Shown piece after piece: positions 44,901 through 47,900 of a stretch of DNA of 64,000 bases. The stretch is from Euglena gracilis (taxonomy: Eukaryota). The stretch lies in the NCBI GenBank assembly GCA_039621445.1, contig CP154954.1:8620634-8684633 (forward strand). Direction: 5' to 3'. Made by a program: the position numbers and the translations under genes. Each line of letters starts with the position of its first letter. Position 1 is the first letter of the stretch. The notes under the pieces are model-generated. The model made no database searches. It worked only from the letters and a program-made list of their open reading frames with translations, and was not told the DNA's origin.

Positions 44901-47900
44901 AGACCCTCCTCGAACGTCGTTCGAGGTCGTTCCAGGAGGTTCGAACCTCCTCGAGTGTGGTTCCAGGTGGTTTGGCGCCTCGCTCGGGTCCCCCCCATGT
45001 TTTTAACCCTAGTAAAATATGTTTTTTTTCAAAACGCGTGGAAAATTTCCTACTGCGGGGTACCAGCTACCCCAAAGAGTCGCCCAACTAGGGTTAATAC
45101 ACATGGGGGGACCCTTGCTCGGCCGAGTAAGGAGAGACGGGGGGGGATTTGAAATGGTCGAATTACCAACCCAATCACATAACGAGAGGGAATAGGTCTC
45201 GCCTGCTTGAGTGGTCGTTTCTGAAAAGATTCCCTGAAACCCAAAAACAAAAAAGAACCCACCCATAATTTGTCGAGGACGTTGGTGTTGAAAGCTGTAT
45301 GCATGTACGTAGGAGGAGGGTCGAGATGTCGTTCGAGGTCGTTCGCGGAGGTTCGAGGTCCCTCCTCGAACGTCGTTCGAGGTCGTTCGAGGAGGTTCGA
45401 GACCCTCCTCGAACGCTGTTCGAGGTCGTTCCAGGAGGTTCGAGACCCTCCTCGAATGTCGTTCGAGGTCGTTCGAGGAGGGTCCTCAAACGTTTTTAAG
45501 CCCCCCCTTGAAGGGGGGTGCTTAAAAACGTTCGAGGAGGTTCGAGTTAGAACGTTCGGGCTCGAACCTCCTCCTACTGTAACCCCCCTGGTCCTCCCCC
45601 CCCTTGGGTCTTTAAGAAAACCTGCCAACCTGACTGTGTGCGTTGCTTGTGGTTGGTGTGTGTGTTGTATGTGTTGTTGTCTGTGTGTCAAGTGTTTTAC
45701 TGATGACGACGTTTTGGTGAGAAATGCCTCTCCATGTCTCGTTATTGCCCCCCCCCCCATTCAGTGGCGCGGACCCCAGCGCAGATGTGGTGGCGGTGTA
45801 CGACGTGAAGGGGTCCCACGCGGGGCGCTCCACCCCGCTGGAGAAGCGCAAGGGCCCCCTGACGGCCCTCAAGGACCTCGACCAGGGTTCGATACACCTG
45901 CTGCCCCCCTTGTCCAACGTCTGGGCTTGCCTAGCGACCACCCCCCTCCCCCGGTCAGATGCGGACCTGGACCAACCCCTAAGGGAATACCAAGGACCCC
46001 CACAGAAGGCCAAGAATTTCCTTCCGGTGCTTCGGGCCTTTCACTTCGAGCAATTTTGACAATTTTCGCTTCCCAAAAGTGCTCCAAATGGCATTTTGGG
46101 TGGATTTTTGGGGGGGGTAAATATTTTTTTCGGCCCATTGTGGCTTTGCCCAAGTGCATGTGCCCCCCTCCCTTAACCACTGAGGGGGTCTGGACTCCCC
46201 CACTGCCCTCATATCGAACCCAGACCTCGATGTGCCCCGACCACTACCCCTGGCAGACCCAGCAGAATTCCAGCTCCTCGTGGAGAGCCGCGACACTTTT
46301 TTTTTGACCCCCCCAACGTTTTGCCACCCTTTCTTGGGTTTTGTCCAAGTTGAGGCTTTTCAGGTGGCTGGGTGGGCGGTCGACTGCCCCTGGGGTTGGT
46401 GTGTGGTGGGGTAGCCCAGCTTTTTTTTCATTATCTTGTGAAGTTCCGCTTGAACCACAATAAAGGTTTCGCGCGACAGATGTGGAATACGACGCCGGGT
46501 TGCTGCGATCTCTAAATATCATGGATTACTCTCAGGCCGGAGTTCAAAAAGACTGAGTGCATAAAGGCAACATTTAACGTGCTTGCGTCTCCCATTACCA
46601 TTCCCTCCACCCTTGAGAGTGTGCCTGCATTTCTCCTCCTTGTGTTTATTGGATTTCATCATGTCGATAAAAGAAATTTCAGAATAACTCCCATTGCTTT
46701 GTTTCCCAACGGATTCATTTTTTTGGTATTACATTATCTTCTCCCATGCCTCCCACCTTCTGCATGTACATCCCCCTTGCCCAATGAAACGGAGGCATGA
46801 ATTTTCTAAGGTTTAGCAGGGCATGCTTTTTGCACAAAAGGAAGGCTGTTTATGCTTTGGGAGGTAATTTGCGGGACCCACAGAGTGCGGACAAAAGTTG
46901 CAGGATACAAACATTATTATTCTCCCATGAATTTTATGTAGTTTTTGTCCCGTGTTCCCACCCACACCCTTTGGGTGGCATTCTCAAATTTGCTCACATT
47001 TTAAACAGGAAAAAATGCGATTCTGTAATATTGTCAGTTTTGGGGGATATTTTGAACCACAAAGAGCACCACCAGACATCCATTTTCACCATCCTTTGGG
47101 ATTTTTTGAGTAGCCTTTTTGCCCAAAAAATCTTCATTACAACTGACAAAAACTTCCACCATTTTCCTCCAAGTTTTGAAATTTTCCATAAAATTTTTTT
47201 TTTTTAAATCAAAAAATGTCTCATAGTATATTTTTCCGTAATATTTTCTTCCCGTCATTTTTGTCTCCCGTCATTTTTGTCCACACTGCATGTTTTCTTT
47301 GCCTGGGTTTATACCTGGTTTTTCACAAAGGCTTCTTTTCAAGAAAGTTTCAAATGCGCAGGTGGTATGGGCTGACATGGGGGGGGAGTCAGTTTCCAGG
47401 TAAGTGTTCCACCCCCCAAAATGCCCTGCCTTCAAAAAAATTTCCCGGTTTTCCAGACATAAACCCCTGGGTTGTTGTAGAACCGGGATTGGGGCTACTG
47501 TGGACAGTTGGCAGAAGACACCCCCCTGGCTGGTCAAAAAAAAGGCTGGTGAACCCGTGTCTGATTAAAATTTTTGCCCAGTGAACGGGGGGGGGGTGTC
47601 CAGACCGTGTAGTTTGTCATTATTTATCGCAATACAAATGCTCATGCACCCCATGTCCAATGAACGTCCCCCATCTGGGCCGTCGGGATCGCCACTTTAG
47701 TGTTCACTGGGCTTGGGGGGTGCTCACCAGGCACCTATAGTCAAGCCCAAAAATTTCCCCATTTTAGGCCATTTTAGGCCATTTTAGGCCATTTTAGGCC
47801 ATTTTAGGCCATTTTAGGCCATTTTAGGCCATTTTAGGCCATTTTAGGCCATTTTAGGCCATTTTGGGCCATTTTGGGCCATTTTGGGCCATTTTGGGCC

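Follow-up and report, generated by a model that had tools for sequence, protein, structure and literature searches.

An intron removed with one copy of its target duplication: a very probable transposon-born nonconventional intron in an EF-hand/PIP-kinase gene of Euglena gracilis

An EF-hand/PIP-kinase gene of Euglena gracilis contains a stretch of 349 nt that is exactly removed from RNA but not from DNA, and we consider it very probable that this stretch is a transposon-born euglenid nonconventional intron, which arose by a most likely hAT-like insertion into LKDLD|V and whose removal takes one copy of the target-site duplication with it. The gene lies in a 64,000-nt stretch of contig CP154954.1, referred to here as the window; the anatomy of the inserted element and a sibling copy of it were observed in the same stretch (Table 1). 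From the published splicing code we infer where exactly the intron is cut, and the transposon superfamily and the involvement of splicing enzymes are likewise putative. As an example of an intron type that is already known, the kinase-gene locus supports the suspected transposon origin of such introns.

Table 1. Features of the kinase-gene intron, its flanking exons and the sibling element (positions in the window)
Feature	Position	Strand	Basis or remark
Upstream exon of EF-hand/PIP-kinase gene (…YDVKGS…LKDL-)	45774..45879	+	5' edge itself slidable by 7 nt
Left 8-bp target-site duplication copy ACCTCGAC	45875..45882	+	By the 3/5 rule, first 5 nt exon, last 3 nt (GAC) 5' spacer
Intron, 349 nt, placed by the published N3-CAG...C(T/A)G-N5|R rule	45880..46228	+	RNA skip and rule
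Non-autonomous element (MITE), 341 bp	45883..46223	+	Ends, duplication, family likeness to sibling
Left terminal inverted repeat CAGGGTTCGATA	45883..45894	+	Its CAG is at intron positions +4..+6
Right terminal inverted repeat TATCGAACCCAG	46212..46223	+	Reads CAG instead of CTG at intron positions -8..-6
Right target-site duplication copy ACCTCGAT	46224..46231	+	First 5 nt 3' spacer, last 3 nt (GAT) exon
Downstream exon of EF-hand/PIP-kinase gene	46229..46285	+	RNA, protein P0001; first base G
Sibling's left 8-bp duplication copy TCCCTTGC	20977..20984	.	Perfect 8/8
Sibling of the same family, 114 bp	20985..21098	.	12-nt ends perfect, pairing reaching 19 nt
Sibling's right 8-bp duplication copy TCCCTTGC	21099..21106	.	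Perfect 8/8

An earlier note on this DNA had described an element with terminal inverted repeats and a target-site duplication that interrupts the LKDLD kinase motif, and all of its coordinates hold; the insertion point of the 341-bp element is inside the codons of LKDLD|V. The 12-nt inverted ends pair at 11 of 12 positions, the sole mismatch being position 2, where the right end has CAG instead of the expected CTG and places an A.A mismatch opposite the 5' CAG. This drift from CTG to CAG, which had also been proposed, is real, being backed by a DNA contig over 46147-46445 with 0 differences. The flanking 8-mers ACCTCGAC and ACCTCGAT are identical at 7 of 8 positions, and a direct-repeat search places this repeat as GACCTCGA (45874-45881 and 46223-46230), shifted relative to the duplication because the element ends in G and the left copy is preceded by G. 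The element ends form a perfect 10-bp pairing (GGGTTCGATA with TATCGAACCC), and the end stem appeared in the MFE fold as well as in the centroid fold, the whole-intron folding energy being unexceptional (z = -0.44). There were no Pfam matches in the + strand reading frames of the element, and its retention would meet a stop at 46057-46059.

Removal of the 349 nt (element plus one duplication copy) was evident in RNA drawn from three studies. The joint 45873->46223, which carries an ambiguity of 8 nt, was found in one contig each of runs X1 and X2, whose joined records of 1703 nt and 2079 nt have three exon pieces back to back, and, for RNA run X21, in 6 raw reads (3+3, with 6 different starts; 22 reads placed), all of them exact. 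The X21 sample covered approximately 5% of the run and yielded only these 6 junction reads; runs were taken as RNA by species label or by guess, the label for X1 and X2 being a guess only. RNA depth within the element was 0 in X1, X2 and X21, and that of the upstream exon in X21 was ~11. The junction from 45879 to 46229 suggested in the earlier note lies within the 8-nt ambiguity of the two contigs and 6 raw reads, and the restored frame claimed there is borne out, as removal of 349 nt joins LKDLD in frame to VPRPLPL. At the joint the mRNA bears the T of the right duplication copy. The public protein P0001 (source name EG_transcript_7280), which is transcript-derived and has EF-hand and PIP5K domains, matches the flanking exons at 100% identity and reads straight across the joint. 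No backward joint (circular intron) was listed among the X21 reads, 22 reads of a cDNA library being too shallow a sample to bear on circles.

The genomic reads gave the opposite picture. DNA run X20 contained 0 joined (element-free) contigs; its contigs span both element borders (45563-46082 and 46147-46445), and two haplotype contigs within the element, at depths of 16.1 and 14.8, together match the flank depth of 31.9. Two explanations in which the transcribed DNA lacks the element can be weighed against these data. The spliced-looking RNA could come from an allele or paralogue that was never hit, the window's allele being a disrupted copy. At position 48234, in the next downstream exon, the window has A, the RNA consensus of X1, X2 and X21 has G and P0001 has V, and RNA and P0001 show a few further residue differences from the window; thus, the transcripts need not derive from the window's haplotype and may stem from another allele or strain. 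However, the three RNA exon pieces showed 0 differences from the window over 214 nt, and X20, whose contigs may miss rare variants and whose strain is perhaps not that of the RNA runs, had no joined contig and had both haplotype contigs within the element at a summed depth equal to that of the flank, which makes an empty allele very improbable as the source of the RNA. The other explanation is that the element leaves the DNA in transcribing cells and the RNA mirrors the excised DNA. Cut-and-paste elements are known to excise, but they usually leave footprints and seldom restore the site exactly, whereas all 6 junction reads were exact and the genomic run showed no joined form and full depth within the element; the likelihood of this explanation is close to nil. 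Removal from RNA remains our reading of the joint.

The RNA cannot fix the position of the cut because nine positions, from 45874-46222 to 45882-46230, fit it equally and yield identical mRNA. The corresponding borders are GA..CA, AC..AG, CC..GA, CT..AC, TC..CC, CG..CT, GA..TC, AC..CG and CC..GA, with no GT/GC-AG or AT-AC pair among them. An AC..AG cut (45875-46223) would be used by a spliceosomal or 'intermediate' intron in which a C-rich tract and the CAG at 46221-46223 serve as the 3' site and AC at 45875 as the donor. In conventional introns of E. gracilis the polypyrimidine tract is C-rich and the 3' consensus is CAG (PMC11170887), and the final 30 nt of the element are rich in C. Such an intron is nevertheless improbable here, since none of the nine cuts provides a GT, GC or AT donor, the end stem and the CAG at +4 are typical of nonconventional introns, and hybrid introns, which constitute 0.8% of all E. 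agilis introns, are presumed to depend on the nonconventional machinery for their processing (PMC12501133). A junction pairing the AG at 46222-46223 with a canonical donor, named in the earlier note as a possible refutation, is excluded because no compatible cut starts with GT or GC.

Among the nine cuts, only 45880-46228 sets CAG (45883-45885) at +4..+6, after a 3-nt spacer, and with this cut the downstream exon begins with a purine (G at 46229). The code of Euglena nonconventional introns has been genetically defined as 5'-N3CDG-/-CH'GN5-6|R (PMC12501133), and CAG/CTG at +4..6/-8..-6 as well as TSD-like repeats have been described for these introns (PMC11282704). At -8..-6 the kinase-gene intron has CAG (46221-46223) in place of a complementary C-H'-G, the outer C and G pairing and the 5-nt spacer fitting the code. 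Splicing of a test intron was lost on single substitutions within its CAG or CTG, and complementarity is part of the published signature; 38.8% of nonconventional introns fall outside that signature (PMC12501133). The kinase-gene intron belongs to this fraction, given that the middle of its 3' CAG is unable to pair with the 5' CAG.

The terminal repeat of the kinase-gene element had been noted earlier to bound also a 114-bp MITE, a putatively free sibling with a perfect duplication of its own, and both the coordinates and the 8/8 identity were confirmed. The two family copies are 25 kb apart, each with a different 8-bp duplication, and the 12-nt ends of the sibling are identical to the family 12-mer of the kinase-gene element. 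This 12-mer was found in the 64 kb at 3 exact sites and 1 one-mismatch site, forming two inverted pairs, where ~0.008 exact matches were expected by chance on both strands (an estimate); two copies are all that were seen of the family in the window. With the ends excluded, the interiors of the two elements share a 52-nt homology adjoining the right end, with a score of 36 versus 20.3 ± 3.2 for shuffled sequences and a score as high in 1 of 500 shuffles (copies were compared by local alignment with shuffles; global MAFFT misplaced the sibling's left end). A complexity-filtered scan for 12-nt inverted ends (≤1 mismatch) flanked by 8-bp repeats (≤1 mismatch) returned 10 matches in the window and 0-3 (mean 0.2) in 30 Markov simulations, the same scan without the filter being swamped by low complexity (736 matches), and seven CAGG-ended elements flanked by 8-bp duplications are present in the window.

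For a newly gained nonconventional intron, the 8-nt direct repeat at its junctions has been read as the result of break repair (PMC4770533), and the repeat in the kinase gene might similarly be a footprint of double-strand-break repair, with inverted ends that evolved in place. This account is rendered extremely improbable by the second copy, which has the same 12-nt ends, the right-end homology and a different, perfect duplication, and by the several other CAGG-end elements with 8-bp duplications in the window. Because the sibling has an 8-bp duplication of its own, transposition is indicated for the kinase-gene element.

In-silico excision of the sibling left stop-free stretches that were long in several frames and looked non-protein-like, and the eight ORFs surrounding it had no Pfam matches; when the 306-bp elements at 57952 and 62914 were excised in the same way, neither revealed a convincing coding frame. 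A scan of 137 ORFs, taken from the 150 longest composition-filtered ones among the window's 224 ORFs of at least 110 aa, found no transposase domain; the remaining 13 were 8 covered by a second scan, 1 from a tandem array and 4 on the minus strand. That second scan, of 100 ORFs from a set of 106, found none either, the six omitted being low-complexity ORFs at 47838-48364 and 49761-50074. An Rfam scan of the window gave 0 matches.

The element family is plausibly hAT-like, this being the most likely assignment because of two sequence features alone, the CAGGG... inverted ends and the 8-bp target duplication. The ends, 12 nt in the kinase-gene copy and 19 nt in the sibling, both start with CAGGG; the consensus of hAT ends is 5'-YARNG, and the hAT target preference is nTnnnnAn. 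With hAT-superfamily MITEs the family has in common an 8-bp duplication, small size and a lack of coding capacity, and its short ends, which start CAG-G, may be of the hAT type; a hAT transposase was not found among the window ORFs scanned. Merlin elements, with 8-9-bp duplications and ends with terminal 5'-GG, have been reported in E. gracilis, and Merlin was the only DNA transposon family that our literature search found for this species, as described in the accessible text of that report (PMC8101967). A Merlin-derived MITE was rejected: the duplication length fits, but the ends start with CA, and the CA/TG pair is part of the inverted repeat. A literature search for a link between hAT and Euglena, which extended to articles and not to supplements that perhaps contain relevant repeat tables, found none; for the chromosome-level genome of E. 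gracilis, DNA elements at 4.60% is the sole figure given in the portion of the paper available (PMC11252322).

Other introns of the EF-hand/PIP-kinase gene show related features. Of its 19 introns, 9 allow a cut that sets C-D-G at +4..+6 together with C-H-G at -8..-6, compared with a chance level of 0.18 from composition and a mean of 0.4 (maximum 2) in controls shifted by 12-40 nt. The nonconventional intron ends are mostly CAGGG or CAGGC, and duplication identity over the introns runs from 8/8 through 7/8 and 5/8 to chance level. Intron 2 (30097-30393) is delimited by another inverted end (CAGGGATTTTTTT...) with an 8-bp duplication that is perfect, and at the protein level, the only level of evidence for it, is also removed with the 3/5 geometry; thus, more than one end-family makes introns. 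The earlier suggestion that several hAT families create introns therefore stands with respect to several end-families, the hAT label itself being only plausible. The accompanying suggestion that the machinery reads end geometry and not the sequence of one element is a conclusion already published on the basis of synthetic-intron experiments (PMC12501133). A reading of the locus as a dinoflagellate Introner was discarded, as the source of P0001 labels it a Euglena transcript and the gene's introns obey the Euglena code.

Excision as a full-length circle, independently of U1 and the spliceosome, counts among the features that define euglenid nonconventional introns. In the mechanism that we propose, a small non-autonomous DNA transposon would have inserted in the LKDLD|V codons and made an 8-bp target duplication. 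In the pre-mRNA the two inverted ends would pair and bring the junctions together, and the Euglena nonconventional system would then cut 3 nt ahead of the 5' CAG and, before a purine, 5 nt past the 3' C-N-G. Because 3+5 equals the 8 bp of the duplication, the element and exactly one copy would be removed and the pre-insertion frame restored. It is also quite possible, and we advance this tentatively, that the 3- and 5-nt spacers are tuned to the 8-bp duplication of one still-active hAT-like group with CAGG ends, that exon insertions in either orientation are born exactly removable, and that most nonconventional introns are aged copies.

What euglenid nonconventional introns derive from, and which enzymes excise them, are questions that date back to the 1990s. 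A MITE origin was proposed in 2014 and is still termed a hypothesis in the literature that we found up to late 2025, and the kinase-gene locus provides a concrete, RNA-verified case for it. The 3+5=8 spacer arithmetic explains the restoration of the frame, and the locus opens the hypothesis to a test by counting end-families across the genome; if the spacers are indeed tuned to the duplication, following the families could reveal an autonomous element and perhaps the RNA-cutting machinery. With CAG opposite CAG, the intron is in addition a natural exception to the published code. Both the phenomenon and the conclusion that geometry prevails over sequence are already in print for Euglena (PMC12501133). 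According to our literature search, three observations are apparently unreported: one family that comprises a copy splitting an exon as well as a young sibling of 114 bp, the two having separate 8-bp duplications; the equality of the spacer sum (3+5=8) with the duplication length; and splicing despite a 3' triplet that is CAG and not CTG.

Comparison with known systems places the kinase-gene intron closest to the nonconventional introns of Euglena (PMC12501133; PMC3935182), with which it shares the lack of GT-AG at any compatible cut, CAG at +4..+6, the 3/5-nt spacers, a purine at the exon start, paired inverted ends, slidable direct repeats and exact removal from mRNA. It differs from them in that its 3' triplet is CAG instead of CTG, which breaks the middle pair without preventing removal, and in that its repeat can be recognised as an 8-bp target duplication of an element of which there is a second copy; direct repeats in the Euglena intron literature have been handled, in the text available, as a nuisance or as 'TSD-like'. 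Intron 4 of E. agilis gapC, present in one strain, is likewise nonconventional, with an 8-nt direct repeat marking a young insertion, but there the repeat was read as break repair and no sibling is reported in the accessible account (PMC4770533), whereas the kinase-gene family has one. Introners of Micromonas, dinoflagellates and others (PMC11282704) are also short non-autonomous DNA transposons with inverted ends and duplications that become introns on insertion, one duplication copy being removed along with the element. Introners, however, bring along or recruit GT/GC-AG sites and leave the RNA through the spliceosome, whereas the kinase-gene element is without such sites and follows a Euglena-specific code.

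A joint from 45873 to 46223, skipping 349 nt with an 8-nt ambiguity, removes from the RNA a 341-bp element that interrupts the LKDLD|V motif of an EF-hand/PIP-kinase gene. The region 45500-47700 was covered by two transcript contig sets from two studies (X1 and X2, whose RNA label is a guess), by raw reads of the RNA run X21 (~5% of the run) and by contigs of the DNA run X20. Every RNA set showed the joint, X1 and X2 in a single contig apiece and X21 in six reads with six different starts among the 22 aligned, and RNA depth within the element was 0 throughout. The joined form was absent from the DNA contigs of X20, which span both element borders. 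Within the element X20 yielded two slightly different contigs whose depths, 16.1 and 14.8, together correspond to the flank depth of 31.9, and we read these as two haplotypes, both carrying the insertion. The mRNA has the T of the right flanking 8-mer (46231), which excludes a cut exactly at the element borders with the whole left copy kept; the junction from 45879 to 46229 proposed in the earlier note is compatible with the RNA, being one of nine cuts that yield an identical mRNA. At 48234, in the exon that begins at 48225, the window carries A (ATC, Ile), the RNA consensus from X1, X2 and X21 is G, and the matching public protein has Val; the transcripts may thus derive from an allele or strain other than that of the window, and A-to-G editing or a mistake in the assembly could also account for the difference.

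The window is eukaryotic nuclear DNA with a G+C content of 45-63%. The right end of the element finishes in ...CCCAG instead of the ...CCCTG expected of a perfect repeat, which bears out the drift from CTG to CAG described previously. The 12-mer end occurs in the 64 kb at three exact sites and one site with a single mismatch, all within two inverted pairs, one of them belonging to a 114-bp sibling. A complexity-filtered scan for 12-nt inverted ends (≤1 mismatch) with an 8-bp direct repeat (≤1 mismatch) just outside them gave 10 matches in the window versus 0-3 (mean 0.2) in 30 Markov simulations, so that the inverted ends and target duplications described in the earlier note, those of the sibling included, are confirmed far beyond chance. 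With the ends removed, the two interiors share a 52-nt local alignment lying in the same place, adjoining the right end (score 36 vs 20.3 ± 3.2 in 500 shuffles, one of which reached 36). The sibling looks younger than the intron copy, judging from its perfect 19-nt ends and perfect duplication against 11/12 and 7/8. PMC4770533 attributes the 8-nt repeat at a recently acquired gapC intron of E. agilis to break repair; here, the presence of two copies, each with a different 8-bp duplication, speaks for transposition and against a break-repair reading.

Coordinates of the element, its sibling and related features (window positions)
Feature	Position	Sequence or ends	Remarks
Left flanking 8-mer	45875-45882	ACCTCGAC	
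Left inverted end	45883-45894	CAGGGTTCGATA	
Right inverted end	46212-46223	reverse complement of CAGGGTTCGATA	one mismatch
Right flanking 8-mer	46224-46231	ACCTCGAT	
Sibling	20985-21098	same 12-nt ends, both perfect, pairing over 19 nt	114 bp; CAGG element; perfect 8-bp duplication TCCCTTGC
CAGG element	29226-29544		
CAGG element	32159-32352		
CAGG element (intron copy)	45883-46223		341 bp
CAGG element	47728-48190		463 bp
CAGG element	57952-58257	CAGGCTTGTGCT	306 bp
CAGG element	62914-63219	CAGGCTTGTGCT	306 bp
Intron 2	30097-30393	CAGGGATTTTTTT...	289-bp element 30100-30388; perfect 8-bp duplication ACCACAAC
Intron	46286-46478	CGC at +4..+6, GCG at -8..-6	193 nt; non-slidable AG..CA
Intron	46530-48224	TCT-CAG...CTG-CCGCC|A	exact fit to code

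None of the nine RNA-compatible cuts begins with GT, GC or AT. The cut 45880-46228 is the only one with CAG at +4..+6; it leaves a 5-nt spacer behind the 3' triplet, and the next exon base is a purine, G (46229). The ends pair through 10 perfect base pairs, an A.A mismatch and then an outer C-G pair, a stem found in both the MFE and centroid folds, while the stability of the whole intron is not unusual (z = -0.44). This is the anatomy of a euglenid nonconventional intron, described in passages of Milanowski et al. 2014 (PMC3935182) and of a review (PMC11282704) as having CAG at +4..+6 and CTG at -8..-6, inverted ends that pair and, in many cases, direct repeats. Knock-in mutagenesis yielded the signature 5'-N3CDG-/-CH'GN5-6|R, and wholly artificial introns of 50 nt that follow it undergo splicing, according to the text of Nomura et al. 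2025 (PMC12501133); the earlier note was therefore right both in its offsets of 3 and 5 nt, which match the published code, and in holding that the machinery reads end geometry and not a particular element, and both points were already in print. Circular forms of excised introns are reported in work cited in PMC12501133 and PMC11282704. The 3' triplet of intron 45880-46228 is CAG rather than CTG. The signature demands complementary middle bases, and changing one base in either triplet was enough to abolish splicing of a test intron (text of PMC12501133), yet no trace of retention of this intron was seen in X1, X2 or X21; the long perfect stem beside the triplets may compensate for the CAG/CAG mismatch.

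A Pfam scan of plus-strand ORFs in 44000-52500, covering 100 of the 106 stop-to-stop ORFs (six low-complexity ones omitted), recovered the PIP5K domain as four colinear fragments, one of which terminates in LKDLD at 45882. The only public protein found by a word-based search with the 40 residues preceding the element was P0001, which has 565 aa, EF-hand and PIP5K domains, 100% identity over the exon and the source name EG_transcript_7280, whose prefix we take from data-set naming to mean Euglena gracilis. Across the joint, P0001 has the sequence expected after removal of the element and one 8-mer. It maps to the plus strand as 20 exon pieces (29112-53385) with 19 intervening introns; its residues 1-3 (MSA) are not encoded beside the first mapped piece (29103-29162), where the window has LPC before SPAATQ, which puts the start codon in an exon still farther upstream or implies different processing of the 5' end.

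GT-AG borders are possible in only two of these introns (17 and 19). C-D-G at +4..+6 together with C-H-G at -8..-6 is available in 9 of the 19, against 0.18 expected from composition and a mean of 0.4 (maximum 2) when both ends were displaced by 12-40 nt as a control. Both neighbours of the element intron are directly supported by RNA and are also nonconventional. Most nonconventional ends in the gene are CAGGG or CAGGC, the same termini as those of the scan's elements with 8-bp duplications. Intron 2, slidable by 9, splits DHN|GDG of an EF-hand and conforms to N3-CAG...CTG-N5|A (protein-level evidence only); its inverted end differs from that of intron 45880-46228, and the 3/5 geometry (a 3-nt spacer before the 5' CAG, a 5-nt spacer after the 3' triplet) is common to both. 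Among 14 nonconventional introns examined, identity of the 8-mers flanking CAG...CTG runs from 8/8 through 7/8 and 5/8 to 0-4/8, which is how ageing target duplications would look. Intron 44238-45773 (1536 nt) is slidable by 7 (CCCCAGC on both sides) and has no CAG/CTG at the usual offsets; it contains a 43-nt unit repeated 3.6 times (45328-45481) and a very high-copy repeat (X20 depth ~12,330 at 45500-45573 vs ~22-32 nearby). A second such repeat lies in intron 16 at 47202-47349 (~6,948 and 1,626 in two bins vs ~30-40), and long microsatellites occupy other introns ((AAC) x 52 at 43657-43811; an (AC)-rich tract of ~1.27 kb at 36000-37272).

Seven elements in the window have 12-nt inverted ends starting with CAGG and 8-bp duplications, and they represent at least five end-families. 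Those starting at 29226, 32159 and 47728 are nested within introns 1, 3 and 16 of the kinase gene, all three nonconventional. The last of these contains a 10-nt unit, CCATTTTGGG, repeated ~42 times at 47759-48175, so that a MITE-like element carries an internal tandem array. The duplications of eight elements lean to A at position 7 (6/8) and C at position 8 (7/8). An 8-bp duplication combined with ends starting CAG-G fits a hAT assignment without proving it; of the proposal that several hAT families make introns, the plurality gains from the different end-family at intron 2, at the protein level. A search of 137 of the window's 150 longest composition-filtered ORFs revealed no transposase domain, and none appeared in the Pfam-scanned ORFs of 44000-52500. 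Merlin families, the only E. gracilis DNA transposons for which we found reports, also make 8-bp duplications (passages of PMC8101967), but their ends are said to begin with GG, and those of the window elements do not.

The data thus show an element, bounded by inverted ends and an 8-bp duplication, that sits inside a codon-dense exon, is missing from the RNA together with 8 further nt, and is retained in the DNA. Under the published code, the inverted ends would pair in the pre-mRNA, with cleavage 3 nt ahead of the 5' CAG and 5 nt past the 3' triplet, just before a purine. The excised stretch would then be the element with 3 nt of the left duplication copy and 5 nt of the right one. Because 3 + 5 equals the duplication length of 8, we infer that the original sequence would be restored whatever the target, each duplication position being represented once in exon and once in intron. 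The copies differ only at position 8: the C of the left copy (45882) falls in the intron, and the T of the right copy (46231) is the third base of a codon, where the change is synonymous. We know of no enzymes in the field for the removal of nonconventional introns.

In the main texts or passages of PMC12501133, PMC11282704, PMC3935182, PMC4770533, PMC11170887, PMC12621601 and PMC11252322, we found no element family with an exon-splitting copy plus another copy, no interpretation of junction repeats as the 8-bp duplications made by a hAT-like group and no statement of the 3 + 5 = 8 argument, an absence that is provisional. Nonconventional introns themselves, the 3/5 geometry, sequence-independent removal, inverted ends, junction repeats resembling target duplications and the MITE hypothesis are already known. 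The kinase-gene intron is accordingly a well-documented case of a known intron class. With respect to the published signature, the 193-nt intron 46286-46478 has complementary triplets (CGC/GCG) yet lies outside it, and intron 45880-46228 falls among the 38.8% of nonconventional introns that do the same.
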